Origin: Elusimicrobiota bacterium
GTDB taxonomy: Bacteria > Elusimicrobiota > Elusimicrobia > UBA1565
DNA: 64,000 bases
Assembly (NCBI GenBank): GCA_043819795.1
Contig: JBDREN010000120.1
Coordinates: 1 to 64,000, forward strand
Direction: 5' to 3'
The position numbers and the translations under genes are program-made. This document shows positions 1 through 37,800 of this stretch, in pieces; the stretch's first letter is position 1; each line of letters opens with the position of its first letter. Under the pieces are notes generated by a model that saw only the letters and a program-made list of their open reading frames with translations, did not search any database and was not told the origin of the DNA.

Positions 1-58
1 CCAAGATCACCAGCACGTTGTTGTTGGAATGCAGGTCGATTCCTGCGTATAATTTCAT
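1..58 (-). mobile_element. IS110-family transposase, 5' end (runs off the window)
   Basis: Manual minus-strand translation from ATG at 58 gives MKLYAGIDLHSNNNVLVIL, matching the N-terminal GID(L/V) motif of IS110 DEDD recombinases. An AGGAGG RBS lies upstream. Confidence 0.8.
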
Positions 59-5422: not shown

Positions 5423-6271
5423 CTACCCTTCCCGCGACGCGGACTCCAGCTTCAGCAGCGCCATGAACCGGTCATAGATCTCGAAGGGCGTACGCCCCAG
5501 TATCCGGACCTCCAGGATGCCGTTGCTCAGCTTCGTCCGGAAATCGCTCAGACACTCCAGGCACCGCAGGCCGTCGGTGAAGCCCAGATAGACCCGGAAA
5601 TCCACCGGATTGCGCGGCCGAAGGGGCGGGACCTCCCCAAGATGCAGGACAGCCTCCCGGGCCGTCTCTTCGATAAGCCCGCGAGATTCGGCCAGCGGGA
5701 GCATCTCGCAGCACTCCCGGGAGATGCCCCTTTTGACGACCGCCACCCGGGTCTTGGGCAGGAGCCTGCGGATCTCGCCCTTGAGCTTGTCGTCGCCCGT
5801 GGCCAGGACAACGGGGACGCCCCAGCCGCCCGCGAGGAAGGCGTTGATCCCGGTCTCGCCGACGTCCACCCCGTTGAGCAGCGCCCTCCGGACTTCCCTG
5901 TCGTAGGTATGGGACAAAACGCCCCCGGGTACCAGCGCGCGGGAGTGGTAGCCGATGAAGAAGCAGGCGTCGAAGCTCTTGTCGAGCCCCTCCAGCATGT
6001 TGGAATTGGGCGGCCAGCCGGAGATCAGGCGTACGCCGGGCTCCAGCTTATCCAAAACGATGTTGTCGCTGCCGCCGTGGGCGTCGCGCACCATGATCTC
6101 GCTTCCCGGCGCGGCGGCGCGAGCGCCCCGGATGGCGGCGTTGACGTCCTCGACCATATAGCTCTTCCCGAGCTCCCAGGCGTGCGACTTGGCCGAGGTC
6201 AGATGCTTTCCGGAGACCCCGGAGATCCCCTCGATGTCGGCGCTGATGAAGATCCGTCTCTTCTTGGCCAT
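5423..6271 (-). CDS. dppA: D-aminopeptidase, M55 family
   Basis: IFISADIEG, DAHG, IGYHS, SHT and GETGIN motifs. Confidence 0.92.
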   Translation of the reverse strand: MAKKRRIFISADIEGISGVSGKHLTSAKSHAWELGKSYMVEDVNAAIRGARAAAPGSEIMVRDAHGGSDNIVLDKLEPGVRLISGWPPNSNMLEGLDKSFDACFFIGYHSRALVPGGVLSHTYDREVRRALLNGVDVGETGINAFLAGGWGVPVVLATGDDKLKGEIRRLLPKTRVAVVKRGISRECCEMLPLAESRGLIEETAREAVLHLGEVPPLRPRNPVDFRVYLGFTDGLRCLECLSDFRTKLSNGILEVRILGRTPFEIYDRFMALLKLESASREG

Positions 6272-6353
6272 CCGCCTCCTCCTTGCCCCGCGCTATCGTA
6301 CACCAAGCCGGACCGACGATACAAGAGCGCGCCCTTTGCTAGAATGTTGCCCC

Positions 6354-8633: not shown

Positions 8634-9424
8634 ACGTCCTGCCATTGCTCCTGTCCATCGTGCTCCAGCAGCCGGCCTTCTGCGCCCAGACGCCCGAGGA
8701 GAAGGGGCTCGCCGTCTTCCGGGAAGCGGAGAAGCGCGACGACGGCTTCCGGAATGCCCGGGCCGAGATGACCATGACCCTCAGGAACCGTCGCGGGGAC
8801 GAGAGCGTACGAAGGATGCGCATGAGGACCCTGGAGGTCACGGACGACGGGGACAAGAGCCTCATCATATTCGACAACCCGAAAGACGTGAAGGGCACGG
8901 CCTTCCTCACCTTCACCCACAAGAAGGGAAACGACGACCAGTGGCTCTACCTTCCGGCGCTCAAACGGGTCAAGCGCATCAGCGCCTCCAACAGGTCCGG
9001 CTCCTTCATGGGCAGCGAGTTCTCCTACGAGGACCTGTCCTCCTGGGAGGTCGAGAAGTACGCATACACGTGGCTGCGCGAGGAGGCCTGCCCTTCCGAG
9101 GAGTTCGAGGAGCTGCGCTGCGATGTAGTGGAAAGCTACCCCGCCGACAAGAAGTCGGGCTACACCCGGATCGTCAGCTGGATCGACGCCGAGGAGTACC
9201 GCAACGTGCGCTCCGAGTTCTACGACCGCAAGAGCTCGCGCCTCAAGACCCTCACGCCCGGCGGCTACGAGAGATACCTCGACAAGTTCTGGCGCCCTCT
9301 CCGGATGGAGATGGTCAACCACCAGACCGGCAAGAGCACGGAGCTCCGGTGGCGGGACTACCGCTTCCGCACCGGGCTCAAGGACAGCGATTTCGACCGC
9401 AACGCGCTCAAGCGGGCCAAGTAG
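8630..9424 (+). CDS. Outer-membrane lipoprotein-sorting (LolA-like) protein
   Basis: PKDVKGTAFL, DDQWLYLPALKRVKRI and FMGSEFSYED motifs; signal peptide; overlaps the MMPL stop. Confidence 0.9.
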   Translation: MNVLPLLLSIVLQQPAFCAQTPEEKGLAVFREAEKRDDGFRNARAEMTMTLRNRRGDESVRRMRMRTLEVTDDGDKSLIIFDNPKDVKGTAFLTFTHKKGNDDQWLYLPALKRVKRISASNRSGSFMGSEFSYEDLSSWEVEKYAYTWLREEACPSEEFEELRCDVVESYPADKKSGYTRIVSWIDAEEYRNVRSEFYDRKSSRLKTLTPGGYERYLDKFWRPLRMEMVNHQTGKSTELRWRDYRFRTGLKDSDFDRNALKRAK

Positions 9425-9429
9425 CGCCT

Positions 9430-10623
9430 ATGCGGGGCATACTCGCGCTTGTGGCGTGCCTGGCGGCTCCCCTCCACGGCGGGGACTGGACCCCAAAGCT
9501 CTCCGGCTACGCGGCCGGCGAGGCGCGGGGATTCGCCGCGGCGCCGCCCTATCAAGGCCAGGTCCGGAACACGGTCTCGGCCGTCTTCGAGCCCGAGCTG
9601 CACCTGCCTCTGGGCCGCGAGGAGCTCACCGCGACCTTCTCCCCCTTCGGCCGGTTGGACTCGGCGGACCCCGAACGGACGTACTTCGACGTCCGAGAGC
9701 TCTTCGTCCTGTGGCACGGCGGGCGGTGGGAGGCGCGCGCGGGCGTGGACAAGGTCTTCTGGGGCGTGACCGAATCGGCGCACCTCGTGGACATCGTCAA
9801 CCAGACGGACACCCTCGGCTCCTTCGACGGAGAGGACAAGCTCGGCCAGCCCATGCTCAAGCTTTCGCTGTCGCCGGACCTCGGGACCTTCGACCTCTTC
9901 CTGCTGCCCTATTTCCGCGAGCGCACCTTCGCGGGGGCCAGGGGCAGGCTGCGCGGCCCGTTGGTCGCGAAGAACTCGCTCGCCCGCTACGAAAGCGCGG
10001 CCGGAGAATGGCATCAGGACTTCGCCGTCCGCTACAGCCGGAGCGTTTCCGTGCTAGACATAGGGCTGTCGCACTTCCATGGGACCGGCCGGGAGCCGAC
10101 CCTGCTCCAAGGCGTGGACCCTTCCGGCACGCCCGTCTACATCCCCTTCTACGAGCAAATAGACCAGACCGGGCTGGACGCGCAGCTGACCGCGGGCTCC
10201 TGGCTATGGAAGCTGGAGGCGATCAGGCGAAACGGCGAGGGCCCGCGCGCCTTCGTGGCGTCGGCCCTGGGATTGGAGTACAGCATCTCCGGCGTGCTCG
10301 GGAGCCCCATCGACCTCGGCCTGCTCGCGGAATGGCTGCTCGACGACCGGCACGGGGACGCCCTGCGGGCGGCCGACAACGACATCACGGCGGGCTTCCG
10401 GCTGGCCTTCAACGACGTGCAGGGGACCGAGCTGCTGGCCTTCGTGGTCCACGACTACCGGAACGCCTCCCGCGTGCTGAGCGTGGAAGCCGGCCGCCGC
10501 CTCACCGACAACTGGAAGGCGGAGGCGCAGGGGTTCATGTTCCTGGGGGCGGCCCCGGGCGATCCCACCTACCTGGTCCGCGACGACGACCACCTCGAGA
10601 TCCGGCTCGCCTATTACTTCTGA
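9430..10623 (+). CDS. Outer-membrane beta-barrel protein of the MMPL/LolA-like cluster
   Basis: Signal peptide, KVFWGVTE..HLVDIVNQ motif, C-terminal YYF. Confidence 0.8.
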   Translation: MRGILALVACLAAPLHGGDWTPKLSGYAAGEARGFAAAPPYQGQVRNTVSAVFEPELHLPLGREELTATFSPFGRLDSADPERTYFDVRELFVLWHGGRWEARAGVDKVFWGVTESAHLVDIVNQTDTLGSFDGEDKLGQPMLKLSLSPDLGTFDLFLLPYFRERTFAGARGRLRGPLVAKNSLARYESAAGEWHQDFAVRYSRSVSVLDIGLSHFHGTGREPTLLQGVDPSGTPVYIPFYEQIDQTGLDAQLTAGSWLWKLEAIRRNGEGPRAFVASALGLEYSISGVLGSPIDLGLLAEWLLDDRHGDALRAADNDITAGFRLAFNDVQGTELLAFVVHDYRNASRVLSVEAGRRLTDNWKAEAQGFMFLGAAPGDPTYLVRDDDHLEIRLAYYF

Positions 10624-15292: not shown

Positions 15293-15979
15293 TCAACCGA
15301 ACAGAAGGTGGTAGCCCGCCAGAAAGATCGCGGCGTCGACGCAGGCGTGGCTGACCCAAGGGCCCCAGAGCGAGCCGGTCCTGCGGTACAGCCACGCCCA
15401 GTAGGCCCCGCCTGCGCCGACCGCCGTTCCGAAGAAGGCCGCCCAACCCGGGCCGAAGAACTGCCAGAGGATCACGTAATGGTGAAGGGCGAAGGCCAGG
15501 GCGCTGAGCCCCACGGCCGCGCGAGCCGGAACGAGGCGCTCCAGCCTCCCGTAGACGAACCAGCGCCAGTAGTACTCCTCGATGAGCGAATGCGCGGCCG
15601 ACACGAAGACGGCGAACGGGAGGTAATGCTCGAGGACGCCCAGTCCCGCCGCCTTGGCGCGGATCGCCGGCACGAAGGGCCGCAGCGATTCCTGCAGGCC
15701 GAAGCGATAGACAAGCAGCATGAGCGCCGCCAAGCCCAGCCCGCCGGCAAGGCCCAAGCAGAGCGAGAGGTTGCCGTCCTCTATCCCGCGGCGTCGCCCG
15801 CTTGAAGGGCCGTCCCCCCCGAAGCGGAGCCACAACGCCGGCCAGGCGACGGTGAAAAGCTTCACGCCGCCGTACGCCGCCTGAGCGGCCGCCGACGCGG
15901 GAAGCCAGACGAAGTACCCCAGCGCGCCCAAGAACGGGACCAGCATCGCCGCCGTCAGGAAGAACCATTCAACGCCCAT
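15293..15979 (-). CDS. CPBP/Abi (CAAX) intramembrane protease
   Basis: EEYYWRW, FALHH and SHACVD motifs. Confidence 0.88.
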   Translation of the reverse strand: MGVEWFFLTAAMLVPFLGALGYFVWLPASAAAQAAYGGVKLFTVAWPALWLRFGGDGPSSGRRRGIEDGNLSLCLGLAGGLGLAALMLLVYRFGLQESLRPFVPAIRAKAAGLGVLEHYLPFAVFVSAAHSLIEEYYWRWFVYGRLERLVPARAAVGLSALAFALHHYVILWQFFGPGWAAFFGTAVGAGGAYWAWLYRRTGSLWGPWVSHACVDAAIFLAGYHLLFG

Positions 15980-16160
15980 GTCGGTGACCCGCCATCACCC
16001 TGGGTGGAGCAATTTTTGTGCCAACTGAACGGGCCGCCTCCCCGCCCGTGCTCGGATCGATGTCAGCGCTCCACAGGTCGGGCGCCGCCACCGACTGAAA
16101 CTCCGCTGACATTCAATATCGCCGTTTATCGACGAGCGGCATGTCCATATCCGGCCTAAA

Positions 16161-16256
16161 CGCTGACACGAAAAATTAATACTTTGAAAATAACACCTTT
16201 TCTAAGTCCGATGTCAGCGCTTTGTCCTTGACTTCCAGGCGTCGCGAAGCAATACT
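16161..16256 (+). promoter_or_regulatory. Conserved operator/promoter module, copy A
   Basis: cgCTGACa-N43-tGTCAGcg-ctttgtcc-TTGACT-N17-AATACT. Extra sites at 16061-16068 and 16104-16111. Confidence 0.75.
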
Positions 16257-16281
16257 ACGATGAGCTTCAAGGAAACGGCCC

Positions 16282-17298
16282 ATGGTTTCGGCATTCCGCC
16301 ATAGCGGCATATCATACCCCGGATGCGACCGCCGGACCGCCGGCCGCGTCGACGACCGCCCGCCCCGGATTCTCCGCTGGTCTCTGGCCGCCCTGCTCTG
16401 TCCGGCGACGTGCCTTTCGGTGCGCGCTGCGGAAGCGCATTTGGAATTCCGCGTGGACGGTGTGGACGGCCGCAGCGCGCTCATCGTGCCGGCCGAACTG
16501 CGGAAGGTTATGTTGGTCCACATCTTCTCGATAGGGGAAAAGGACTGGCAGGGGGAGATCGAGGACCTGCAAGCCTTGCATAAACGCCACAAGGAGGATG
16601 GCTTCGCCGCGATCTCGGTGGCGGCTCGGGCGCCGGGAGTCGAGCGGAAGCTGAGGAGGTTCGCCTCCGCGCGGAAGATCGCCTTCCCGATCGGAGTGGA
16701 CTCCCCGGGCGGGGCCCTGGACGTCTTCGGCGTCGGCGAGATGCCCCGCGTCGTCCTGATCGAGGCGTCCGGGAAGGTAAGCCTGCGCTCTACGGAGAGG
16801 TTGGCGTCCCTCCTTCCGAGCCTCAAGGAGACGCTGCCCCGCCTGCTGGAGGAGCGGAGGGGATATATAAAGGAGCAGGAGCGTCTGGCCGAGGAGCGGG
16901 CCGCGAAGATGAAGGCCGAAGAGCAAGCCCCAATCCTCGACGCCGAGGGGGAAATCGAAGCCGTCACCCCGGAGGATCTCAAGAAGATGCTCGAGGACGG
17001 CGAGGACTTCGGCCTGTATTTCGTGGGCATCAAGGAGGATTTCGAGGAGAAGCGCATCCCCCGGGCGGTCTTCGTCCACATCGGCGAGGTGGACGGCTAT
17101 TTCGAGGGCCGGGGCCGGGGGGAGCGGATCGTACTGTACTGCGGCTGCGGAGAAAGCGAGCTGGGCGCGAGCGGCCGCGCCGCCATCGAGCTTTACCGGA
17201 AGGGCTTCAAGAACGTGGCCTATCTGGAAGGCCATATCCACGAGTGGGAAGCCAGGGGCTTCCCGCTCATCAAGGGGACGCACACAAACGGAGGCTGA
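16282..17298 (+). CDS. Redoxin-like (no CxxC) plus rhodanese fusion protein
   Basis: TlpA-like fold (IEDLQALH, MPRVVLIE cis-Pro strand) and rhodanese domain (RIPRA, VLYCGC, GFKNVAYLEG). Start uncertain. Confidence 0.75.
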   Translation: MVSAFRHSGISYPGCDRRTAGRVDDRPPRILRWSLAALLCPATCLSVRAAEAHLEFRVDGVDGRSALIVPAELRKVMLVHIFSIGEKDWQGEIEDLQALHKRHKEDGFAAISVAARAPGVERKLRRFASARKIAFPIGVDSPGGALDVFGVGEMPRVVLIEASGKVSLRSTERLASLLPSLKETLPRLLEERRGYIKEQERLAEERAAKMKAEEQAPILDAEGEIEAVTPEDLKKMLEDGEDFGLYFVGIKEDFEEKRIPRAVFVHIGEVDGYFEGRGRGERIVLYCGCGESELGASGRAAIELYRKGFKNVAYLEGHIHEWEARGFPLIKGTHTNGG

Positions 17299-17299
17299 T

Positions 17300-18211
17300 A
17301 TGAACAGACGAAAAAACGTCCGGTGCGGGCTGATCATGACGGCGGCCCTGCTTATGAGCGTTGCGCTCGGTTCGGATGCGTTCGCGTTGACCGCTACAGT
17401 CGATCTGAATCGCGGCGCTTTCACGGGATGGGGCACCTGCAACCAGTGTTGGTGCGGGGAACGGTGGTCAAATTCGGACAATCAAAACCAGAAGGCGACG
17501 TTCACCGACACGACGCCCACGCCTGTGAGTCCCGGCGTGGACCTCGCATCGATCGTCCTCGACATCCCGCACAATATGTGCAACGAGGGGACCTTCGTGA
17601 TCTTCCTCAACGGCGTCGAAATTGTGCGCCAGTCGGGAGGCCAGGGGTGCTGCAGCCGCAAGAAGTTCGGGCCGTACGACGTCAAGCCTGGCGTCTACCC
17701 GGCGGGGATATACCAGTTAGGGGGAACGAACACCGTCGACATCCTGCATCTGGGCAGCGGCGGCTCGGCAGACACCGCGTTCTACAGCGACGACCCCATG
17801 ATCACGCTGCAACTGGACATCGGGATCCCCGCTCTCATCACCTCGCCGGAGGACGCGTCGTTCACGAACGCCGTCACGCCGGAGTTCCGGTGGAACGACC
17901 TCAGCGCCTTGGGAGTGACATCGTATCGTCTGGAAGTCGCGGAAACCCCATTCTTCGATCCGGACGTGATCGATGCGACGGTGAACGGCACCCAGTACAC
18001 GCCGTCGACCAGCCTGGGCAACGGCATCACGTACTACGCCCGGGTGACTCCGATCGGCATCGCCGGCGACATCCTCGCATACATCTCGGACTTCACCGTG
18101 GACACGACGCCGCCGCACCACCCGGTCTTGGAGTCGCCCGCGGACGAGGCGGAGGACGTGGTCGAGACCCCCACGTTCGACTGGCAGCCCCTGACGTCGG
18201 GGAGCGAGTGA
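17300..18211 (+). CDS. Secreted protein: Cys-rich head, one FN3-like domain and an orphan two-strand C-terminal tail
   Basis: Signal peptide ending DAFA, GGAGG RBS, head with 6 Cys, FN3-like unit, and tail PVLESPADEAEDVVETPTFDW followed closely by the stop. Confidence 0.85.
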   Translation: MNRRKNVRCGLIMTAALLMSVALGSDAFALTATVDLNRGAFTGWGTCNQCWCGERWSNSDNQNQKATFTDTTPTPVSPGVDLASIVLDIPHNMCNEGTFVIFLNGVEIVRQSGGQGCCSRKKFGPYDVKPGVYPAGIYQLGGTNTVDILHLGSGGSADTAFYSDDPMITLQLDIGIPALITSPEDASFTNAVTPEFRWNDLSALGVTSYRLEVAETPFFDPDVIDATVNGTQYTPSTSLGNGITYYARVTPIGIAGDILAYISDFTVDTTPPHHPVLESPADEAEDVVETPTFDWQPLTSGSE

Positions 18212-18250
18212 TCGGGCGGGCCGCCGCGCCCGACAAAGCGCCATGAGGCG

Positions 18251-21200
18251 ATGATGAGACGATCATCCGCGATTTTGGCGGGCCTGCTCGCGACGGTGCT
18301 GTGCGCGCGCGCGTGGGCCGTGCCGGATTCGCCCGCATTGGAGTTCCCCGTCGACGGTCGGCTGACGTCGGACAGGACTCCTTCGTTCGATTGGGCGGAC
18401 GTTCCCGGCGCCTCCCTCTACCGGCTCGAGGTATCCCTCAACTCCGGCTTCACCTCCATCGTGCAGAGCATCTCGGGGATCACCGAGTCCCGGTATACGC
18501 TGACGGGCCCGAGCCCGTACGGCCTGGAGCGAGGCAAGACATACTACTGGCGGGTCATCGCCAAGGACGAGACGGGGGAAAGCCCCCCCTCGGGCGGGAG
18601 GAGCCTGAAGCTGCGGCTGAACACGATCACCTACGACTTCGAGCTGAGCGACAACGAGGCCTTCGCCCCGCCGCTCGTCGCGGCCAGGACCCTGAGCTCC
18701 GAGGACCCCATGGTCGCGACCGCGAGCGAGGTCACGCTGACCGATGAGGAGCGCCTTCCCAACGACGCGCTGCTGTTCTGGCGGGTGCGGGCCATCGATT
18801 CCTCCGGCAACGTCCCGGCCTTCGTCGCGACGCGGAAGTTCACGACCATCGAGCCGCTCGACCCCGCCGCCCTGCTCCTGCCCGCGGACGGCTCCAAGCC
18901 GATCACGCCGACCCCGCTGTTGGACTGGGCGGACGTTCCCGCCGCCACGCAATACACGGTGACGGTCTCCACAGACCCGGGCCTGGAGCCGGCCCTGTTC
19001 ACGCGCAACTCCGGCTCGTCGCAATACCAGGCCGTCTCCGGCGACAACCTGCAGGACCAGGCCACCTACTATTGGAGGGTGAAGGCCGCCGACGCGGGAC
19101 GGATCAGCCTCTCGGATACCCGGAGCTTCATGATCAACTCCCTGGATCCCGCCGCGCTGCTCTTCCCCGCGGACAGGCGACGGACCTCCGACCGCACCCC
19201 GTCGCTTCAGTGGAGCGTGCCCCCCGACATGACGGGCCTGAGCTTCACTTTGGAGATGGCCGTCAACTCCTCCTTCTCGTCGCTGCAGTTCACGAGGAGC
19301 GGACTCGTCACCGGAGCCTACACGCTGGCCGGCGCGGGCGGGGAGCTCCTGGAGCGCGGGAAGACCTACTACTGGCGGGTCAAGACGATCGATCCCGGGG
19401 GCCAGGTGGTCACCTCCGCCTCGAGGAGGCTGCTGGTGGTCCACGACACCATCACCTACGACCTCGAGATCGCCGATGAGGACTCGTTCTCCCCGCCGCT
19501 GATCTTCGCGAGAACGCTGGCTTCCGACGATCCGATGGTCCCGACGACGAGCGAGGTCACGCTGAGCGAGGCCGAGCGCCTACCCAACGACGCGCTGCTC
19601 TTCTGGAGAGTGCGGGCCGTGGACTCCGCCGGGAACGCGCCCGCGTTCGTGCTCACGAGGAAGTTCACCGTCGTCACCGCGCCCCCGGTCGCGGTCCTGC
19701 TCTCGCCCGCGGAGGGCGCCCGGCCCATCACGCCGACGCCGCTCTTGGACTGGACGGACGTCCCGGGGGCCACGCAATACACGGTGACGGTCTCCACGGA
19801 GCCCGGCCTGGAGCCCGCCCTGTTCACGCGCAACTCGGGCGCGTCGCAGTACCAGGTCGCCTCCAGCGACAACCTGCAGGACGGGATCGCCTACTTTTGG
19901 AGCGTGAAGACCACGATCGGGATACGGACCAGCTACTCCGAGACGCGGAGCTTCACCATAGCGGCCCTCGAGCCGGCCGAGTTGCTCTTCCCCGCGGACA
20001 GGCGGCTGACCTCCGACCGCACCCCGACTCTGCAATGGAGCATGCCCCAGGACATGACCGGTCTGAGCTTCACCCTGGAGGTGGCCCTCAACTCGAGCTT
20101 CTCGTCGATGCTCTTCACAAAAACGGGCCTCTCCACCGGGACCTACACGCTCACCGGAGACCTGCCGGAGCGCTTCGAACGCGGGAAGACCTACTACTGG
20201 CGGGTGAAGACGATCGACGCCGGAGGCCAGATCCTCACATCTTTGACCAGGAAGCTCCAGGTTCGCCTCAACACCTACACCTTCACCCTGGAGGTCGACG
20301 ACGAGCTCCCGATGGCCCCGCCGTTCGTCTTCACGAGGACCGTGACCTCGGACGATCCCATGGTCCCGACGACGGACAAGATCACGCTGGCCCCGGAGGA
20401 GGCCCTCCCGTACGGCGCGGTGCTGTATTGGCGGGTGCGGGCGATCGACGCCGCGGGTAACGAGAGCGTGCGCGCGCCCGAGAGCAAGTTCACGGTCGTC
20501 GACCGGCTGGAGGCGGCGATCCTCCTGAATCCGTATGACGGCGCCCGGTCGTATACGCGGACGCCGCTCATGGACTGGACGGACGTCCCCTCGGCCACGG
20601 ACTACACGGTGTCCTTCTCGTTCAACGACGCGATGGACCCCGTGCTTTTCTCCCGCAACACCGGCGCGTCCCAGTACCAGACCGCCTCAGGCGACAGCCT
20701 CCAGGACCTGACCACCTATTACTGGCAGGTGGACGCCTCCGGGGAAGGGCAGACGAGCTCCTCCGCGATCCAGCGCTTCTTCGTCCGGCTGAGCGACTTG
20801 AGCGCGCCGGAGTTCCTCCTGCCGGAGAACGGCGCGACGGTGCGCACGAGGACGCCGCTCCTGGACTGGTCGGACGTCGCGGACGCGACGAGCTACACGG
20901 TGTTCTTCTCCAGCAAGGAGGCGCTGGAGCCGCTTCTGGTCAATCCCTCCATCACGGTCTCCGAGTTCCAGATCACGGAGGGCGACAACCTGGAGAACGG
21001 GACCACCTATTATTGGAGGGTCGAGTCCCGGACCGCGGGGGGGGAGTTCGCAATCTCCCCGATCCAGAGCTTCCTCGTCCAGGAGATCGTGGTCGTGCTC
21101 CCGCCGGGGCCGGTGGACCCGCTCTATCCGCCGGACGGCCGGCTCACCTCGGACCGGACGCCGTCTCTGGAGTGGAGCCCGCACGAGGACATGTCCGGCC

Positions 21201-24200
21201 TCAGCTTCACGCTGGAGGTATCGAAGAACACCTCGTTCTCCTCTCTGCAGTTCAGCCGGAGCGGCCTGACCGAAGGCCGGTACACCCTCGCCGGCACGGG
21301 CGGAGAGGAGCTCGAGCGCGGCAAGACCTACTACTGGCGCGTGAAAACGGTGCCCTTCGCGGGCGATCCCCTGGTCTCCTCCGCCCGAAGCCTGAAGGTG
21401 CGCTTGAACACGATCACCTACGACCTGGAGGTCGACGACGAGGCCTCGTTCTCCCCGCCGCTGACCTTCGCGAGGACTCTGGCTTCCGCCGACCCCATGG
21501 CCGCGACGCCTAGCGAGGTCGCGCTGACCGATGAGGAGCGCCTGGCCAACGACGCGGTCCTCTTCTGGAGGGTGAAGGCCGCCGACGCCGCCGGCAACGC
21601 CTCCGGAGGCGGCCCGGCGCGCTCCTTCACCGTGATCAGCGCCCTCCCGGCGGCCGCGCTGCTCGCTCCCTGGAACGGCTCGACCCCGTTCACCCGGACG
21701 CCGCTCATGGACTGGGAGGACGTGCCGGCGGCGAACCAATACACGGTGACCGTATCCACGGAACCGGACCTGGAGCCGGCCCTGTTCACGCGGAACTCCG
21801 GCTCGTCGCAGTACCAGGTCGCCTCCGGCGACGACTTTGCGGACGGGACCGTCTACTATTGGAGCGTCAAGGCGACCGACGGGGGGCGGGTCAGCTTCTC
21901 CGAGACCTGGAGCTTCACGCCCGTCACGCTGGCCCCGGCCGCGCTGCTGTATCCCCCGGACGGCCGGCTCACATCCGACCGCACCCCGTCGCTGCAGTGG
22001 AGCATGCCCGGCAACATGACCGGGCTCAGCTTCACGCTGGAGGTGTCGAAGAACTCCTCGTTCTCCTCTTTGCAGTTCAGCCAGCCCGGCATATCCACGG
22101 GCGCCTATACCCTGACCGGCGAGACGCCTCAGCGCCTGGACCGCGGGATGACGTATTACTGGCGGGTGAAGACGGTCGACCCGGGAGGCCAAGAGATCGT
22201 TTCGGGATACAGGACCCTCAAGGTGCGCTTGGATACGATCACCTACGACCTGGAGGTGAGCGACAACGAGACGTTCACCCCGCCGCTCATCGTGGCGAAG
22301 ACCCTCTCCTCCGGCGACCCCATGGTCGCGACGCCAAGCGAGTTCACGCTGAGCGCCGAGGAACGCCTGAGCAACGACGCAGTCCTGTTCTGGAGGGTGA
22401 AAGTCGCCGATTCCGCCGGGAACGCCCCGGCCTTCTTCCTGGCGAGGAAGTTCACGGTCATCGCCCCGCTGCCCACGGCCGCGCTGCTCGTTCCGCCGGA
22501 CGTGTCCACCTCCGTGACCCGGACGCCGCTCATGGACTGGACGGACGTCGCCGGCGCGTCGAACTACGCGGTGACGATATCCACGGACCCGGGCCTGCAG
22601 CCCGCCCTGTTCACGCGCAATTCTGGCTCCTCCCAATACCAGACCACCTCCAGCGACAACCTCCAGGACCTGACCTCGTACTATTGGCAGGTGAAGGCCT
22701 CCGGGGGAGGCCGGGACAGCTTCTCCGCGACGCGGAGCTTCATCATCCAGTCCCTGGCGCCGGCGACGCTGCTCTACCCGCCGGACGGCCGCCTCACCTC
22801 GGACAAGACGCCTTCGCTGCGGTGGAGCGTCCCCGAGGACCTGACGGGGCTGAGCTTCACGCTGGAGGTGTCGAAGAACTCCTCGTTCTCCTCCCTGCAG
22901 TTCAGCCAGCCCGGGATATCCTCGGGCACGTATACCCTGACCGGCGACACGCCTCAGCGCCTGGACCGCGGGAAGACGTACTATTGGCGGGTCAGGACGA
23001 TCGATGAGCGGGGCCAGCAGCTGACCTCCGGCTCGAGGAGCCTGAGGGTGGGCCTCAACCAGATCGCGTATCGTCTCCAGGTCTCGGGCCTTTCCGATTT
23101 CTCCGCCCTCCTCATCGATGAGCCGGTGGCGCCCTCCGCGGACCCCCTGGTCGAGACGCCGTCCTTGTACGCGGTCCCCGCCTTCCAGGTCCTGGAGAAC
23201 CGCAAGACCCATTACTGGCGGGTGGGGGCCCGCGACGCGGGTGGCAACGAGGCCTTGCTCAGCCCCGCGCGCAAGTTCAAGGTCGACGACCCGGACCCGG
23301 GGCCGATCCTGCTCGACCCCGACGACGACGCCCGGCTCCTGAGCGCCACGCCCTTCACGGACTGGACCGACGTGATCGGGGTGGACAGCTACGAGTTCCT
23401 GGTCGCCCGCGACGCGGGCTTCGCCTCCCCGGTCGTGACGCAGAACGTGGTGGTCTCCATGACCCGGGTCCGCACCGTGGACAACCTGCAGCTCGACACG
23501 CGCTACTTCTGGAAGGTGTCGGCCCTGAGCCAGGGGACGACCACCTATTACCCGACCCGGAGCTTCATCGTCACCGAGGACATCCCCAACGAGCGGCCCG
23601 TGGCCGTGGCCGACTCGACCTCCACGCTCGAGGATGTCCCCTTCCCGATCTTCGTGCTGGCCAACGACTTCGACCCGGAGGGCGACCCGCTCGTGGTCGC
23701 GGAGCACACCCAGGCCTCGCACGGGACGCTCCAGCTCAGCCTCGGCGCCACCGTCGTGTTCTACACTCCGGATGAGGACTTCTACGGGAGCGATTCCTTC
23801 ACCTACCGGGCCTCCGACAGCGACTTGGTCTCCACGAACACGGTCACGGTCTCGATCACGATCGAGGCGGTCAACGACGCCCCCGTGGCGGTGGCGGACT
23901 CGGCCACCACCGCCGAGGACACCGCTGTCTCCATCGACGTCCTGGCCAACGACTCCGACATCGACAGCCCGGAGCTCTCCATAGCGGAGGTCTCCGACCC
24001 GCCCAACGGCTCGGCGTCCCTGCAGGACGGGGCGATCCTGTACACGCCGGACCTGAACTTCTTCGGAACGGACGAATTCACGTGCACGATCACGGACGGT
24101 GAACTCACCGCCGCGGCGGATGTCACCGTGACGGTGACGCCGGTCAACGACGCCCCGGTGGCGGTGGACGACTCGACGACGACCCCCGGCTTCGACCCGT

Positions 24201-27200
24201 ACGAGATCGAGGTCCTGCTCAACGACGTCGATGTCGAAGGGGACGCGCTCGCGGTCCACTCCTTCACGCCGCCCACCAGCGGCAGCCTCGAGCTGAGCCC
24301 CGACGACAAGGTCTTCACCTTCACCCGGGACCCGGGCTTCAACGGGACCGTGTTCTTCACCTACACGGCGACGGACCAGGCGCTCGAGTCCACGAACACG
24401 GCGACCGTCTCCGTCTTCGGGACGAACAAGCCCGCCGCGGTGGACGCGGGCGCGGACCAGGAGATCGGCGAAGGGCAGTCCGTCAGCCTGCCCCCGGCCA
24501 CCTTCACCGACGTCGACATCGAGACCCACACGGCCGTCATCGACTGGGGCGACGAGACCGTGGAGGCGGGCGAGCTCGACGAGGAGGCGGGGACCGTCTC
24601 GGGCTCGCATCCGTATCCCGATGACGGGACGTTCACCGTCACCGTGACGGTCCGGGACGCGGCGGGCAACGAGGGCTCCGACAGCTTCGAGGTCACGGTC
24701 AACAACGTGGCGCCCGCGGTGGAGGCGGGCGCGGACCGGACGATCGACGAGGGCTCCGTATTCGCCGGCTCCGGGTCATTCACCGATCCCGGCGCGGATA
24801 CGTGGACCGCCACGGTGGACTACGGCGACGGCGGCGACCCCGAAGCGCTGGAGCTGGACCCGGACAAGACCTTCGCGCTCGAGCATCCCTACAGGAACCA
24901 GGGCGAGTACACGGTCACGGTGAGGGTCGAGGACGACGAGGAGGCCGCGGGCGAAGGCGCCCTGACGGTGACCGTGCTCAACGTCGTCCCCACCCCGAAC
25001 GCCGGCGGGCCCTACGAGATCGACGAAATGACGGCGCTCACCCTCGTCGGCTCCGCCACCGATCCCGGCCCGGACGACACCCTCGCCTTCGCCTGGGACC
25101 TGGACGGCGACGGGGAGTTCGACGACGCGGCCGGGGCGGGCCCCGAGCTCTCCTGGGCGGAGTTGCAGGCCCTGGGCCTGGGCGTCGCGCCGGAGACCTT
25201 CAACACCCCCCTGCCCATCGCCTTGAGCGTCGCCGACGACGAGACGTCTGCGACCGCGGCGACCACGCTCACGATCCTCGACCGCACGCCGCCCACACCA
25301 CCGGGCGATGTCGTCGCCGGGGAGACCCCGAACAACACGGGGGACGTCACCGTGACCTGGACCGCGGCGGCGGACCCCGGCGGCTCGGGAGTCGAGGACT
25401 ATCTCGTGCTCCGCAAAGACGGCGAGGACGACTTCGAGCGGATTGCGACCGTCCCGAAGGGCACGCTCGAGATCGAGGAAACGTCCCTCCCGGATGGCGC
25501 GTACACCTACCGGATCGTGGCGCGCGACCGGGCGGGCAACGAGTCCGAGCCGGCCGACTCGAACCCCGTCCTCGTCGACAAGACCGCGCCCACCATCACG
25601 GCGATCCTGGCCCCCCCGCCGAACCCGGCCGGGTGGAACAACAGCGACGTGACGATCTTCTTCAACTGCGCCGATGAGCCCGGCGGCTCGGGGCTGGCCC
25701 CGGACGCCTGCCCGGCCGCGAGGACGGTCACCGGCCAAGGCGCGGACCAGGACGACACCGCCGGCGTGAGCGACCTGGCCGGCAATACGGGGACGGTCGA
25801 GTATGCCGTCAGCCTCGACAAGGAATCCCCCTCCGTCCTGATCACGGCGCCGTCGGGCGGCCAGTATGTGGCCACGCGCGATCCCATCAGGATCGACTTC
25901 ACTCTCACCGACAACCTCGACCCCGCCCCGGCGTTCACGGCCACGCTGGAGCTCCGCGCGGCGGGGACCGGGGCCCCGGGCAAGCCGACCCGGCGCACGG
26001 TGGAGAACGGCGAGACGCTGGAGCCCCTGGACCTCGCGGCCGGCCTATGGCGCCTGACGGTGAGCGCGACCGACCAGGCGGACAACCCCGCGCTCGCGAT
26101 CGGCGCGGAGTTCGAGATCATCCACGATATCATGGAGCCTCGCACGACGGTGAGCGTGGCGGAGCCGAGGTATCCTGACGCTACGGAGCCTGAGCCGGCG
26201 GTGATCTACCTGACGGGAACGACGGATGTGACGGCGAGCTCGATAGACGACCTTGTGGCGGTGGACGGTCTAGGGCTCGGAGTGGCGACGCAGACGATCA
26301 CGGTGGGCGGAAACCCGCGCTTCGAGTACGTGAACCCGGCGCCGGCGATCGGACAGACGTACGCCAACACGTTCACGCTGAGCGACACCGACGGCCCGCT
26401 GGCGCTCTTGGCGGAGGCCGTGGACACCTTGGGCAACGCGGAAACGGGCGTTCCGGTGAGCCTGCACGTAGACAACACGGCGCCCGTGATGGACCGCGGT
26501 TTCAGCGCGGAGCCGGTGGTGCGCGAGCCCAAGAACGAGGAGTGGTTCGCGGCGGACTTCGAGATCATCTGGTCGGCGGGGGACGGGATGGGGTCGGGGG
26601 TGGCGCATCTCGACGGGCCGACGCCGGTGACGGCGGAGGCGGCGGGGGCGGATTACACGGGCCGGTCGGTGGACAACGTGGACAACGAGCGGACGCTGAC
26701 GGTGCGCGTGAACCTGGACAAGACGGCGCCGGTGGTGAACGCGGGCGCGGACTCCACTGTTGAGGAGGGCGCGGAGCTGGTCTTCTCGGCGACGGTGACG
26801 GACAACCTGGACGCGGCGGTGGTGTACGGCTGGACGTTCGGCGACGGCGGGATCGCGGGCCGGGAGCTGACGCCTGCGCACGCGTATCTGGACGAGGGGA
26901 CCTACGAGGTCACGCTGACGGCGACCGACCACGCGGCGCACCCCGCCTCGGACTCGCTGACGGTAACGGTGACGAACTCCGCGCCGATCGTGACGGCCGG
27001 CCCGGACCGGAGCACGAAGGAAGGGTCGCTCGTGGGCATCAGCGCGACGTTCACGGACGCGGGCATCCTGGACACCCATGCGGCGGAGGTGGACTGGGGC
27101 GACGGGACGACGTCGCCGGCGAGCCTGACGGAGACGGACGGTTCGGGCAGCCTGAGCGCGGAGCACGTGTACGCCGACGACCGTGTGTACGCGGTGAAGA

Positions 27201-29638
27201 TCACGGTGACCGACGACGACGGTGACGCGGGGGAGGCGACGCTGGCGGTCGCGGTGGAGAACGTTCGGCCCACGATCGAGGCGGGCGCTGATCAGACCGT
27301 GGACGAGGGCGCGCCCATCAGCCTGGCGCCGTCGACGTTCCGCGACCAGGGCGCGTTGGACACGCATACCGCCACCATAGATTGGGGCGACGACACGGGC
27401 GTGCAGGCGGCCGCCGTGACCCAATCGCCGTTCGGCCCGCCGGGCGACACGGCGGGCCAGGGCGGGACGATAGCCGCCTCGCATGTCTACGCGGACAACG
27501 ACGCCTACACGGTGACTGTGTGCGTCAAAGACGACGATGATGCCGAGAAGTGCGACACCCTGACCGCGAGCGTGAATAATGTGGCCCCGACCATGGAGGC
27601 GGTCACGGACAAGATCGCGGCGGCGGACGGGCGCCTGATCGTGGGCGGCGGGATCCCGGTGCGGAGCATGGATGTCTGGCGGCTTGGGCAGAGCGGCCTG
27701 CAGAGCGTCGTGATCGGACCGGACGAGCCTGTGGCCGCTCCGCCGATCGAGTTCCACGACCAAGGCACGCTGGACACGCACGGCGTGCTGATCGAGTGGG
27801 GCGACACCACGTCCGACGCGGCGACAGTGACCGAGTCGCCGTTCGGACCTCCGGGCTCGACGGGAGGCGCGGACGGGTCCGCGGTGGCGCCGCATCAGTA
27901 TACGGCGAACGGATACTATCCGCTCAAGGCGACGGTGACCGACGACGACGGCGGCCAGACGGACGACGGGTACCTGGTGACGGTGGATGTGGAGCCGCCG
28001 GTTACGACGATCTCGCACAGCGGGAACGTGAGCATGGGGGCGGGGACCCCGGCGCAGGTTTCGGTGTTCCTGGACGCGGGCGCGATGAACGCGCTGAGCG
28101 CGACGGACCCCATGATCAACGGGATCGCCTTCGGCGCGCAGTGGACCTTCCGCAGAGACCTGTCGTTCGAGGGCTCGAACTCGACGTACACGGTGCATGA
28201 GGTGGCGTTCAACCTGGCGGAGGAAGGGGTGCACACCCTCGAGTACTTCAGCGTGGATAGGCGGGGAAACGAGGAGACGCACAAGCTCATCACGATCGGG
28301 GTGGACCATACGCCTCCCATCCCGGCGCTGGCGGTGGGCGATCCGCATTTCATCCGGTTCGGGCTGACCATCATCGAGCCGGAGACGCCGATCATCCTGT
28401 CGGCGGAGGACCCGGTGACTTCCGACGTCGCTTCGGGATTGGACCGGATCACGTACCGGATCGACGGCGGGGAGCTCCTGACCTACGCGGAGCCGTTCAC
28501 GCTGGATGAGGGGACGCACGTCATCGACTACGGCGCGGTGGACAAGGTCGAGAACGAGGCGCGCGAGACGTTCACGGTGGCGGTGGCGGCGTTCCAAGTG
28601 ACGGGAGTGGAGCGGGTGGACGGGACCGGGAGCTCGGACATCAAGGGCTTGCTGCGGTCGAACGGCCTGGTGGACCTAGGCGGGTCGAGCCGCGTGGACG
28701 GGGACGTGATCGCGGGGAACGTGACGCTGAAGGGCAAGGCGGAGGTGACGGGCACGATCACGGAGGGCGCGTCGCCGGTGCAGGCCGAGCCGATCGACCT
28801 GGAGTTGGCGGAGAGCCTGGCCTTGGCGATCAGCGCGACGTCGACGATCCCCGATGAGTTCATGTCGGGCGGAGAGATCGTTGTGAACTCGGGGCGGACG
28901 CTGACGCTGGCGACGGGGACCTACGTGGTCGAGGGTCTGCGTATCGCCGGCGGCGGCTCGATCGAGACGGCCGGCGCGGTGAACATCCTGGTGCGGGGCG
29001 AGGTTCGGGTGACCGGAGGCGGGAGCTTGAACGCGGCGGGCCACGCCTCGGAGCTGGCGGTGTTCACGAACACGTCGCAGCCGACGCACTTCTCGGGCGG
29101 GGCGCTGGTGGTGGGGATATTCTACGGACCTCGGGGCGAGCTGCAGGTCGCGGGCAACACGCGAGTGGGCGGACATCTGTTCGCGAAGACCGCGAAGTTC
29201 TCCGGGACGGCGAACGTGGTGGGGATCGGGGAGAGCCTGCCAGAGGAGCTGGAGGATCCGAACGGCGGCAAGGGCGGCAAGACGGCCGGATCGGGGTCCG
29301 CCGCTCTCTCCGGGACGGCCGACCCGGGCTTCGCGTTGCGCGCGGCCTACGTGTTCCCGAACCCGGCGGTGGGCGGCGCGAGGCCGACCGTCCACATCGC
29401 GGTCGGGATCGCCGACAAGGTGACGCTGCGCATCTATAACGTCGCGGGCCAGCAGGCGCATCAGGTCACGCTGGAGGGGACGCCTCCCGTTATCGACGAC
29501 GGTAGCGGGTCGAAGTTCGCCTACGAATACACCTGGGACGGACACATCCCCAGCGGCGTCTATCTCTACACCTTCGTCGCGGAGAAGGCCGGAGAGTCCG
29601 GCATCCGGCGAGCGGGCAAGTTCGCCGTCATCCGCTGA
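18251..29638 (+). CDS. Giant secreted multi-Ig protein, 3795 aa
   Basis: Signal peptide; 19 FN3-like cores; three Big_9/cadherin-like units (PVAVAD..LAND); several PKD units (IDWGD, Y.D.G.Y); OmpL47-like units; a Gly-rich beta-helix-like region; C-terminal YVFPNP...SGVYLY Ig domain. Confidence 0.93.
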   Translation: MMRRSSAILAGLLATVLCARAWAVPDSPALEFPVDGRLTSDRTPSFDWADVPGASLYRLEVSLNSGFTSIVQSISGITESRYTLTGPSPYGLERGKTYYWRVIAKDETGESPPSGGRSLKLRLNTITYDFELSDNEAFAPPLVAARTLSSEDPMVATASEVTLTDEERLPNDALLFWRVRAIDSSGNVPAFVATRKFTTIEPLDPAALLLPADGSKPITPTPLLDWADVPAATQYTVTVSTDPGLEPALFTRNSGSSQYQAVSGDNLQDQATYYWRVKAADAGRISLSDTRSFMINSLDPAALLFPADRRRTSDRTPSLQWSVPPDMTGLSFTLEMAVNSSFSSLQFTRSGLVTGAYTLAGAGGELLERGKTYYWRVKTIDPGGQVVTSASRRLLVVHDTITYDLEIADEDSFSPPLIFARTLASDDPMVPTTSEVTLSEAERLPNDALLFWRVRAVDSAGNAPAFVLTRKFTVVTAPPVAVLLSPAEGARPITPTPLLDWTDVPGATQYTVTVSTEPGLEPALFTRNSGASQYQVASSDNLQDGIAYFWSVKTTIGIRTSYSETRSFTIAALEPAELLFPADRRLTSDRTPTLQWSMPQDMTGLSFTLEVALNSSFSSMLFTKTGLSTGTYTLTGDLPERFERGKTYYWRVKTIDAGGQILTSLTRKLQVRLNTYTFTLEVDDELPMAPPFVFTRTVTSDDPMVPTTDKITLAPEEALPYGAVLYWRVRAIDAAGNESVRAPESKFTVVDRLEAAILLNPYDGARSYTRTPLMDWTDVPSATDYTVSFSFNDAMDPVLFSRNTGASQYQTASGDSLQDLTTYYWQVDASGEGQTSSSAIQRFFVRLSDLSAPEFLLPENGATVRTRTPLLDWSDVADATSYTVFFSSKEALEPLLVNPSITVSEFQITEGDNLENGTTYYWRVESRTAGGEFAISPIQSFLVQEIVVVLPPGPVDPLYPPDGRLTSDRTPSLEWSPHEDMSGLSFTLEVSKNTSFSSLQFSRSGLTEGRYTLAGTGGEELERGKTYYWRVKTVPFAGDPLVSSARSLKVRLNTITYDLEVDDEASFSPPLTFARTLASADPMAATPSEVALTDEERLANDAVLFWRVKAADAAGNASGGGPARSFTVISALPAAALLAPWNGSTPFTRTPLMDWEDVPAANQYTVTVSTEPDLEPALFTRNSGSSQYQVASGDDFADGTVYYWSVKATDGGRVSFSETWSFTPVTLAPAALLYPPDGRLTSDRTPSLQWSMPGNMTGLSFTLEVSKNSSFSSLQFSQPGISTGAYTLTGETPQRLDRGMTYYWRVKTVDPGGQEIVSGYRTLKVRLDTITYDLEVSDNETFTPPLIVAKTLSSGDPMVATPSEFTLSAEERLSNDAVLFWRVKVADSAGNAPAFFLARKFTVIAPLPTAALLVPPDVSTSVTRTPLMDWTDVAGASNYAVTISTDPGLQPALFTRNSGSSQYQTTSSDNLQDLTSYYWQVKASGGGRDSFSATRSFIIQSLAPATLLYPPDGRLTSDKTPSLRWSVPEDLTGLSFTLEVSKNSSFSSLQFSQPGISSGTYTLTGDTPQRLDRGKTYYWRVRTIDERGQQLTSGSRSLRVGLNQIAYRLQVSGLSDFSALLIDEPVAPSADPLVETPSLYAVPAFQVLENRKTHYWRVGARDAGGNEALLSPARKFKVDDPDPGPILLDPDDDARLLSATPFTDWTDVIGVDSYEFLVARDAGFASPVVTQNVVVSMTRVRTVDNLQLDTRYFWKVSALSQGTTTYYPTRSFIVTEDIPNERPVAVADSTSTLEDVPFPIFVLANDFDPEGDPLVVAEHTQASHGTLQLSLGATVVFYTPDEDFYGSDSFTYRASDSDLVSTNTVTVSITIEAVNDAPVAVADSATTAEDTAVSIDVLANDSDIDSPELSIAEVSDPPNGSASLQDGAILYTPDLNFFGTDEFTCTITDGELTAAADVTVTVTPVNDAPVAVDDSTTTPGFDPYEIEVLLNDVDVEGDALAVHSFTPPTSGSLELSPDDKVFTFTRDPGFNGTVFFTYTATDQALESTNTATVSVFGTNKPAAVDAGADQEIGEGQSVSLPPATFTDVDIETHTAVIDWGDETVEAGELDEEAGTVSGSHPYPDDGTFTVTVTVRDAAGNEGSDSFEVTVNNVAPAVEAGADRTIDEGSVFAGSGSFTDPGADTWTATVDYGDGGDPEALELDPDKTFALEHPYRNQGEYTVTVRVEDDEEAAGEGALTVTVLNVVPTPNAGGPYEIDEMTALTLVGSATDPGPDDTLAFAWDLDGDGEFDDAAGAGPELSWAELQALGLGVAPETFNTPLPIALSVADDETSATAATTLTILDRTPPTPPGDVVAGETPNNTGDVTVTWTAAADPGGSGVEDYLVLRKDGEDDFERIATVPKGTLEIEETSLPDGAYTYRIVARDRAGNESEPADSNPVLVDKTAPTITAILAPPPNPAGWNNSDVTIFFNCADEPGGSGLAPDACPAARTVTGQGADQDDTAGVSDLAGNTGTVEYAVSLDKESPSVLITAPSGGQYVATRDPIRIDFTLTDNLDPAPAFTATLELRAAGTGAPGKPTRRTVENGETLEPLDLAAGLWRLTVSATDQADNPALAIGAEFEIIHDIMEPRTTVSVAEPRYPDATEPEPAVIYLTGTTDVTASSIDDLVAVDGLGLGVATQTITVGGNPRFEYVNPAPAIGQTYANTFTLSDTDGPLALLAEAVDTLGNAETGVPVSLHVDNTAPVMDRGFSAEPVVREPKNEEWFAADFEIIWSAGDGMGSGVAHLDGPTPVTAEAAGADYTGRSVDNVDNERTLTVRVNLDKTAPVVNAGADSTVEEGAELVFSATVTDNLDAAVVYGWTFGDGGIAGRELTPAHAYLDEGTYEVTLTATDHAAHPASDSLTVTVTNSAPIVTAGPDRSTKEGSLVGISATFTDAGILDTHAAEVDWGDGTTSPASLTETDGSGSLSAEHVYADDRVYAVKITVTDDDGDAGEATLAVAVENVRPTIEAGADQTVDEGAPISLAPSTFRDQGALDTHTATIDWGDDTGVQAAAVTQSPFGPPGDTAGQGGTIAASHVYADNDAYTVTVCVKDDDDAEKCDTLTASVNNVAPTMEAVTDKIAAADGRLIVGGGIPVRSMDVWRLGQSGLQSVVIGPDEPVAAPPIEFHDQGTLDTHGVLIEWGDTTSDAATVTESPFGPPGSTGGADGSAVAPHQYTANGYYPLKATVTDDDGGQTDDGYLVTVDVEPPVTTISHSGNVSMGAGTPAQVSVFLDAGAMNALSATDPMINGIAFGAQWTFRRDLSFEGSNSTYTVHEVAFNLAEEGVHTLEYFSVDRRGNEETHKLITIGVDHTPPIPALAVGDPHFIRFGLTIIEPETPIILSAEDPVTSDVASGLDRITYRIDGGELLTYAEPFTLDEGTHVIDYGAVDKVENEARETFTVAVAAFQVTGVERVDGTGSSDIKGLLRSNGLVDLGGSSRVDGDVIAGNVTLKGKAEVTGTITEGASPVQAEPIDLELAESLALAISATSTIPDEFMSGGEIVVNSGRTLTLATGTYVVEGLRIAGGGSIETAGAVNILVRGEVRVTGGGSLNAAGHASELAVFTNTSQPTHFSGGALVVGIFYGPRGELQVAGNTRVGGHLFAKTAKFSGTANVVGIGESLPEELEDPNGGKGGKTAGSGSAALSGTADPGFALRAAYVFPNPAVGGARPTVHIAVGIADKVTLRIYNVAGQQAHQVTLEGTPPVIDDGSGSKFAYEYTWDGHIPSGVYLYTFVAEKAGESGIRRAGKFAVIR

Positions 29639-37581: not shown

Positions 37582-37604
37582 GGCGACACCTCCAACGATG
37601 GCAT

Positions 37605-37700
37605 AGTATGGCTCGTATGCGCCGACATTTCAAGGACAACGGCCTGACAGAAGAGTGATAAATACACATAAGAAATAAGTGGTTTTTATATTGGTCAGAA
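37605..37700 (-). promoter_or_regulatory. Conserved operator/promoter module, copy B
   Basis: Minus strand: CTGAC-N45-GTCAG, then gc-cgttgtcc-TTGAAA-N17-CATACT. Confidence 0.7.
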
Positions 37701-37800
37701 AAGTGAGGCCCCTCTGGGAAAACTCTCTCTAAGTTCATAGTATTTATTGATGCAAAGTCCTTTCCCGTCCATGGTGAAGACGGGAGAGAGGAGGCATGTT

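Follow-up and report, generated by a model that had tools for sequence, protein, structure and literature searches.

Background

In chaperone-usher pili an incomplete β-sandwich is finished after export by a strand from another chain, and in cellulosomes the tandem cohesins of a scaffoldin load many copies of cargo through C-terminal dockerin tags. Here we describe a candidate docking system from an Elusimicrobiota bacterium, encoded in a 64,000-nucleotide stretch of DNA, the window (assembly GCA_043819795.1, contig JBDREN010000120.1, positions 1 to 64,000, forward strand). It comprises a giant secreted scaffold of fibronectin type III (FN3)-like units, six of which (B units) are devoid of strands A and B and stand between complete A and C units, and a secreted partner, encoded directly upstream, which ends in the hairpin of strands A and B that the B units lack. 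We consider it highly probable, on sequence grounds, that the tail of the partner completes the B units in trans and so forms branch points on a linear β-sandwich chain.

The closest solved case is the baseplate of phage Tuc2009, where a C-terminal β-hairpin of about 25 residues of BppU completes the titin-like β-sandwich of BppA domain 2 and thereby attaches an accessory carbohydrate-binding module (PMC4742702). In both cases the C-terminal hairpin of one protein would complete the β-sandwich of another. The phage arrangement belongs to a virus particle and has one acceptor per chain, at the chain end, with valency arising from oligomers, whereas here secreted cellular proteins carry 1 to 21 acceptors inside one chain, each behind an adaptor (the A unit), as putative branch points. 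Hairpin donation in trans is already known; a literature search over titles and abstract openings, with thin coverage of subscription papers, found no description of a multivalent split-FN3 scaffold.

Chaperone-usher pili differ in that a single strand (G), borne on an N-terminal extension, builds a linear polymer with the help of a chaperone and an usher, whereas here two strands (A and B) from a C-terminus would build heteromeric branches within the FN3 topology. In pili each subunit has an acceptor groove and an N-terminal donor; here the donor is C-terminal and lies on a protein without a hairpin-less core, and since the donors carry no acceptor, no polymer would form. The three genes of the probable operon described below have no match to PapD-like chaperone or usher families, for which the rest of the window and the genome were not scanned. 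With the cellulosome the system shares a long scaffold, tandem docking sites and a tag at the C-terminus of the cargo. However, cohesin and dockerin are complete folds and many enzymes are tagged, whereas site and tag here are halves of one domain and a single orphan tail was found in the genome of the window (G000), which is estimated to be 90% complete. No cohesin or dockerin Pfam match was detected in the partner or the scaffold at e-values up to 0.1.

The B unit has the same FN3 cut as anastellin, which is fibronectin III-1 without strands A and B; anastellin is a recombinant piece of a eukaryotic protein for which no matching hairpin is encoded, whereas the B unit is genetically encoded, repeated and paired with a hairpin (PMC2671840). 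All units belong to the PF25788 (Ig_Rha78A_N) family, which matches the scaffold at an e-value of 8e-46, above the cut-off, and whose ordinary members have complete domains only.

Putative acceptor and donor modules

Profiles for the F-strand core and for the opening motif (strands A and B) recovered 19 cores against 13 opening motifs in the scaffold, the same counts as in the original prediction, which had been made from the letters and reading frames of the window. The units follow in the order A B C A B C A B C C A B C A B C A B C. All six B units, which lie within 9 nt of where they had been placed, lack the opening motif; each has 78 aa and starts at strand C right behind strand G of the preceding A unit, with 275-379 residues between successive sites. 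The partner, which has no hairpin-less core of its own, bears two opening motifs, and the last of them stops 7-8 residues before the stop codon, confirming that the upstream gene ends in a lone motif. Among the 50113 six-frame open reading frames (ORFs) of the genome, the opening-motif profile found the C-terminus of the partner to be the sole credible orphan opening motif, and it detected no credible copy of the motif outside the partner and the scaffold. The copies of the scaffold repeat are 60-81% identical in DNA over 300 nt, which points to an old amplification and not to an echo of the assembly.

To place these units in the context of their family, we compiled the core-to-core gaps in 261 family proteins with 3241 cores. 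The distribution was bimodal, with 56 gaps of at most 4 aa, 4 of 10-19 aa and the rest of at least 20 aa, suggesting that the missing hairpins of the B units are not a product of chance or drift. The 60 short gaps occur in eight proteins: six scaffolds of the system account for 58, a profile artefact for that in P0125, and that in P0206 is unexplained. In P0206 (2710 aa) the hairpin-less core stands at residue 1081, and the Trp of an opening motif is the last residue of the chain. A variant that complements itself or joins head to tail might account for this, as might a deletion combined with a cut gene call; the apparent orphan tails of P0180 and P0206 seem to stem from such cut calls. In 80 genome loci (654 cores in 99 ORFs, 77 of these with a stop), the sole true orphan tail was found in a Deltaproteobacteria bacterium (L122), and orphan cores were found only there and in a Myxococcales bacterium (L125).

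The B cores retain the face that a hairpin would cover: 13 buried positions are hydrophobic in 89 B cores as often as in 313 complete controls (13 of 326 control cores, duplicates of system domains that had entered the control set of the tree described below, were removed for these counts), and the F-strand Trp and the EF-loop Leu are each present in 89/89. An FG-loop Asp is seen in 85/89 B cores. An A unit always precedes a B unit and carries invariant junction residues. An EF-loop Arg is found in 78/89 A cores, in 0/88 B cores and in 10/309 control cores. A DP(M/L) loop had been taken as private to the B units; it is indeed present in 6/6 of those in the window, but it is a lineage-specific trait, with the Asp alone kept in 9/9 aligned rows and the loop absent from myxobacterial B units.

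Homologs of the partner keep the orphan hairpin at the C-terminus. By contrast, the head differs among them (22-29% identity among five homologs), and the richness in Cys that had been noted for it, though borne out by six Cys in the window, is not a defining trait. The head has no match in Pfam or NCBIfam; it probably adopts a jelly-roll fold like that of carbohydrate-binding modules, and its structural look-alikes in the Atlas are the SBD, BcsB and CBM60 clusters (TM 0.59-0.67, all below the bar for naming a family). All Atlas feature matches stayed below 0.9. The whole partner likewise has no match in Pfam, but local FN3-like profiles do match it.

Conservation of the pairing

That orphan tails should co-occur with B-type domains was a test set beforehand, and it was passed in two phyla: B units without strands A and B and partners that end in strands A and B are conserved together. 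Seven B-bearing scaffolds have upstream DNA, and in six (those of the window, L021, L022, L023, L024 and L122) a hairpin-ending gene lies directly 5'. In the seventh (G039) the gene 5' is divergent and unrelated and the hairpin-ending partner is on another contig, so that the two genes can be unlinked. The homologs P0004 and P0005 show the same signal-A-B-C layout. An A-B query recovered 39 metagenome loci; four of them (L021-L024) have B units, all preceded by a gene ending in a complete domain plus an orphan hairpin, and in L025 and L211 a partner is followed by the start of a scaffold-like gene (A-type in L025) cut by the contig end.

In 401 genomes of the Elusimicrobiota phylum, the partner profile matched 69 genomes at 1e-8 and the scaffold profile 15 at 1e-20, and the same three genomes (G000, G114 and G039) were alone in passing 1e-30 with the partner (E<=2e-32, next 4e-19) and 1e-60 with the scaffold (E<=5e-89, next 8e-28). 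These matches are partly so by construction, the scaffold profile (A5) having held sequences of G039 and G114 and the partner profile (A4) that of G114, and only 2-10 candidates were scored per genome. G039 nevertheless provides an independent case: its B unit was found by a profile built from the window only, and its partner by a profile without the G039 partner.

With the partner of the window as the query, only itself and two FN3-only matches were recovered. When the partner alignment served as a profile against 1.84 billion representatives, ordinary repeat proteins dominated the matches, among which three further scaffolds were gained. A scan of genome contigs with alignment A3 gave no usable pattern, and the viral contigs searched yielded just two weak single-domain loci.

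A myxobacterial lineage

A second lineage of the system occurs in myxobacteria, where the scaffolds consist of A-B repeats only, without C units, and carry 9-21 B units (21 in P0121, 16 in P0138 and 10 in P0165). Locus L024 is of this kind: an 829-aa partner frame is followed by a 4641-aa frame of A-B pairs without C units, with 16 B units by profile. Partner and scaffold are adjacent in L122, and L125 has a scaffold. The myxobacterial B units contain no extra segment able to replace the hairpin. Among homologs of the L024 partner, 24 of 25 stop 5-7 residues past the hairpin Trp, the exception being a 585-aa protein without the whole C-terminal part. The last 34 residues of these 24 partners are conserved at 0.62 against 0.47 for the protein as a whole and rank in the top 4.4% of 34-aa windows; an Asp at Trp+5 is found in 22/24 and the linker Asp is invariant in all 24.

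In 401 genomes of this second phylum the partner profile matched four, and the four best scaffold matches (E<=5e-36, next 3e-21) fell in the same genomes. Each of these four has hairpin-less cores, whereas the next 26 scaffold-matching loci show normal gaps only. These 26 (L218-L243) hold a widespread myxobacterial protein of ~1200 aa, with two complete domains of the FN3-like family near one end, which stands outside the system. One carrier (G541) has two partner-like genes. In another (G412), a 2900-aa frame (L212:3-8702) has an FN3 domain and hairpin followed by Cys-rich and other domains, that is, an internal donor, and on another contig a 5511-aa frame (L213:1-16533) starts with the N-terminal domain of the partner; both frames may belong to a single giant partner that the assembly has broken in two.

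By eye, the myxobacterial partners begin with a hydrophobic helix that leads straight into charged residues, which looks like an uncleaved anchor and suggests a membrane-anchored protein. In the predicted fold a beta-rich domain, a beta-propeller and an FN3 domain are seen; fold searches returned generic beta-propellers (lectins, sialidases) and indicated no function. In a tree of 98 cores, built from 71 columns with a quick method, 15/17 Elusimicrobial-type B cores group together (SH-aLRT, the Shimodaira-Hasegawa-like approximate likelihood ratio test, 99) and the myxobacterial B cores do not join them; cross-lineage profile scores of B cores were no better than those of controls, so that the two lineages may have one origin or two.

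Structure models and alternative explanations

AlphaFold models of one A-B-C triplet (mean predicted local distance difference test, pLDDT, 85) have complete A and C units, which thus conform to the seven-strand FN3 sandwich, and a B unit of four strands with strand E unformed, which by itself does not. Foldseek searches with this model returned FN3 arrays as the top matches, and the C unit superposes on 9kvu with a Z of 11.1 and a root-mean-square deviation of 2.1 over 87 residues. The lone tail was modeled on a myxobacterial homolog, not on the partner of the window; there it has no secondary structure (pLDDT 35-57), and the adjacent FN3 domain is at 90+. The acceptor lacks the strands that a second gene product bears at its terminus, the donor is conserved and predicted to be unfolded alone, and the acceptor keeps its hydrophobic groove. 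As tails and B units co-occur, B keeps its hydrophobic face, myxobacterial B units have no spare sequence and the tail is conserved yet predicted to be unfolded alone, the trans-completion proposed originally is supported.

Several observations weigh against this interpretation. The pLDDT of the hairpin-less B unit is fair (block means 61-91), so that B might persist unfilled, and anastellin has a defined structure and self-associates (PMC2671840). The hairpin-less core of P0206 is outside any A-B pattern. Only the N-terminal part of a partner is seen in G549, and the hairpin of G412 is internal to its frame and not terminal. The kin loci are not independent of one another, to which the built-in profile matches and the few candidates per genome mentioned above are to be added.

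The first two points raise the possibility that B is an autonomous, self-associating half-domain like anastellin, which packs on A or pairs across scaffolds to cross-link them, the tail binding something else. The four-strand sheet of B, modeled at pLDDT up to 91, and the constant A unit 5' of it with its invariant junction residues would fit this idea. However, it leaves unexplained why in both phyla the neighboring gene should end in just those strands that B lacks, why the tail is conserved although unfolded alone, and why the exposed face of B shows no polar drift, and we regard it as unlikely.

Tail and B unit read together as one ordinary domain of the family, and the gene order is collinear with an insertion of stop, ribosome-binding site, signal peptide and A domain. 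The two genes might accordingly be relics of a fused ancestral protein, cut by such an insertion into non-functional halves that do not dock. As the history of the locus a gene split may be right. As an account of its present state it is very unlikely, given that B has been amplified up to 21-fold and is still conserved, that the tail is conserved above the average of its protein, and that no fused head-FN3-hairpin-B protein was seen in near-length homolog searches.

A feature overlooked in the original prediction is that the partner and scaffold genes share one frame, with one TGA and 13 codons between them, and by ORF coordinates several relatives are likewise in frame. This would permit the halves to be joined by TGA read-through, by ribosome bypass, or by shufflon-like recombination of the partner 3' end with one of the six B starts. 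However, L021, L022 and L211 are out of frame, L023, L024, L025 and L122 have further stops, and in G039 the genes are unlinked; moreover, read-through could fill only B1, and that across a signal peptide. TGA is the stop of 253/530 long ORFs in the genome, and the longest words that the partner 3' end shares with the six A/B junctions have 6-9 nt (5-10 nt in 100 random controls). With TGA a common stop and the shared words at control level, the read-through and recombination-site ideas were rejected, and joining of the halves in general is hardly credible.

Least probable of all is a nested arrangement, in which the tail completes the core of A and the scaffold's own opening motif completes B, with the A core within the BC loop of B: the count of missing hairpins would be the same and A does have unusual invariant residues, but the start of strand C and the end of strand G of A lie at opposite ends of the FN3 fold, by its general topology, with no linkers, and AlphaFold builds A complete at pLDDT about 90.

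Proposed mechanism and implications

Under trans-completion, after Sec export the last ~35 residues of the partner would pack against a B unit and so restore all seven strands of an FN3 sandwich. Strand C is where the chain of the scaffold enters B, which would put both the A unit before it and the FN3 domain of the partner at the same end of B and make each site a three-way branch point, with A as a dedicated adaptor at the junction where A, B and the partner FN3 would join. We placed the conserved residues by the general FN3 topology, checked against the strand list of the model: the EF-loop Arg and AB-loop motif of A, the C'E-loop Asp(-Pro) and FG-loop D-x-x-G-N of B, and the linker Asp and last BC-loop residues of the partner all map to one predicted junction. 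The scaffold would thus be a bottle-brush with up to six heads in the protein of the window (1-21 in relatives), a partner-to-scaffold stoichiometry of 6:1 being suggested by the number of sites.

A Ca2+ ion may lock this junction. In the BIg adhesin SiiE, type I Ca2+ sites of three Asp at the domain interface rigidify a tandem-domain surface protein (PMC5466336); the candidate site here would be split between two chains. A PDB sequence search gave no SiiE match. The tail of the partner in the window has Ser and not Asp at Trp+5, and the linker Asp is absent in two Elusimicrobial-type tails, both of which weaken this step; such a lock is more likely in the myxobacterial form.

In this genome the system would probably serve to display a glycan-binding head in many copies along a surface adhesin of great length, whereas in the second lineage it would moor a giant protein multivalently to membrane-anchored partners. 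The C-terminal motif of the scaffold ends 14 ORFs of more than 300 aa in the genome (scaffold included) and is near-identical in about ten. By analogy, it is a probable export or anchoring (sorting) signal; type IX secretion system and FlgD-like C-terminal domains are the precedent for such a role, and a literature search found no description of the domain common to these secreted proteins. It is absent from the partner, which, less certainly, may ride on the scaffold (hitch-hiking). Many other frames of 4000-10000 aa with other FN3-like repeats are seen on contigs C19, C56, C82, C105 and C172 of the genome and in relatives, up to 20647 aa in one relative.

More generally, and here we see the chances as evenly balanced, the A-B cassette could be a general, genetically encoded code for branching the giant surface proteins of bacteria. 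Dropped 1 to 21 times into any β-sandwich chain, it would form a socket, nearly irreversible and perhaps locked by Ca2+, for any protein with a 35-residue hairpin tag at its end. The products would be bottle-brush adhesins in Elusimicrobiota, and in myxobacteria moorings that hold to the membrane at many points, with cargo lacking its own export domain riding on the scaffold; a dedicated helper protein may belong to the system, which may have originated on two occasions. The giant repeat proteins known from uncultured bacteria are regarded as linear chains, and this scaffold appears to encode sockets for side branches, an assembly rule that is concrete and open to test. The signature by which partners of other giant proteins may be found is a core that follows a core without a hairpin, and a gene that ends 5-8 residues past the hairpin Trp. 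If the mechanism is right, strand donation extends beyond linear pili and the joints of phages to cellular scaffolds that are multivalent, with a cellulosome-like logic from one split fold. For assembling proteins, a tag-and-socket pair that nature has evolved to work in tandem could also be a useful tool.

Gene neighborhood and other features

Table 1. Features of the split-FN3 locus and their positions in the window
Feature	Positions	Strand	Remarks
Redoxin-like and rhodanese fusion gene	16282..17298	+	Pfam AhpC-TSA/Redoxin and Rhodanese; redoxin matches below cut-off
Partner (donor) gene	17300..18211	+	303 aa; signal peptide, head, complete FN3-like domain, orphan A/B hairpin
Partner signal peptide	17300..17386	+	aa 1-29; hydrophobic 19-mer up to A-x-A-like site, by eye
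Partner variable head	17387..17821	+	6 Cys
Partner complete FN3-like domain	17822..18103	+	EF loop L-x-N-G
Orphan donor hairpin	18104..18208	+	Linker Asp, strand A, A', strand B with Trp295, BC-loop start, then stop
Scaffold gene	18251..29638	+	3795 aa; signal peptide, 19 FN3-like units, Big_9/cadherin-like, PKD and other Ig-like domains, C-terminal domain
A1 adaptor	18317..18613	+	Complete; EF-loop Arg
Other A units	19136-19438, 19961-20263, 21080-21400, 21923-22225, 22748-23050	+	
B1 acceptor	18614..18847	+	Strands C-C'-E-F-G only
B2 acceptor	19439..19672	+	
B3 acceptor	20264..20497	+	
B4 acceptor	21401..21634	+	
B5 acceptor	22226..22459	+	
B6 acceptor	23051..23284	+	Most divergent, 32% to B1
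C1 spacer	18848..19135	+	Complete
Other C units	19673-19960, 20498-20785, 20786-21079 (extra), 21635-21922, 22460-22747, 23285-23572	+	
Scaffold C-terminal domain	29351..29635	+	Common to other secreted proteins of the genome; matching motif

The redoxin-rhodanese, partner and scaffold genes form a probable three-gene operon, in that order, with no terminator-like sites found between them on the + strand of 15900-18400. That partner and scaffold each have their own signal peptide and ribosome-binding site holds good: both start with a hydrophobic stretch up to an A-x-A-like site (by eye) and are preceded by a Shine-Dalgarno-like GGAGG or GAGG. A single 161-nt contig from two DNA sequencing runs spans 18091-18251, stop included, and is identical; it possibly stems from the source sample and is not counted as support. 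Elsewhere these runs gave scattered pieces, with three short-sided joints outside the partner/scaffold finding.

The redoxin-rhodanese protein has a signal-like N-terminus and, by eye, no CxxC in its thioredoxin-like domain. Its gene lies directly 5' of the partner gene in L023 and L025 and adjoins it on L090 (37-38% identity), and is present in 2/321 genomes of the Elusimicrobiota phylum, both carriers of the system; it was not found in the carrier G114. It is thus associated with the system without being obligatory, and its product may, less surely, have a helper role. L090 (G039:C80, 2301 nt) contains only the redoxin-rhodanese and partner genes, and its ends overlap by 141 nt, so that it is either a circle or a tandem repeat that has been collapsed. 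Amplification of the donor cassette is thus possible in G039, whose known scaffold has one B unit.

Elsewhere in the window, the - strand of 36325-39030 encodes two secreted proteins whose heads, by eye, are lamin-G-like; PKD is present in one of them and Asp/Cys-rich repeats in the other. At 6189-10623 an MMPL/RND-family gene, an outer-membrane lipoprotein-sorting-like gene and a probable barrel stand in series and, by eye, form an ordinary-looking transport cluster.

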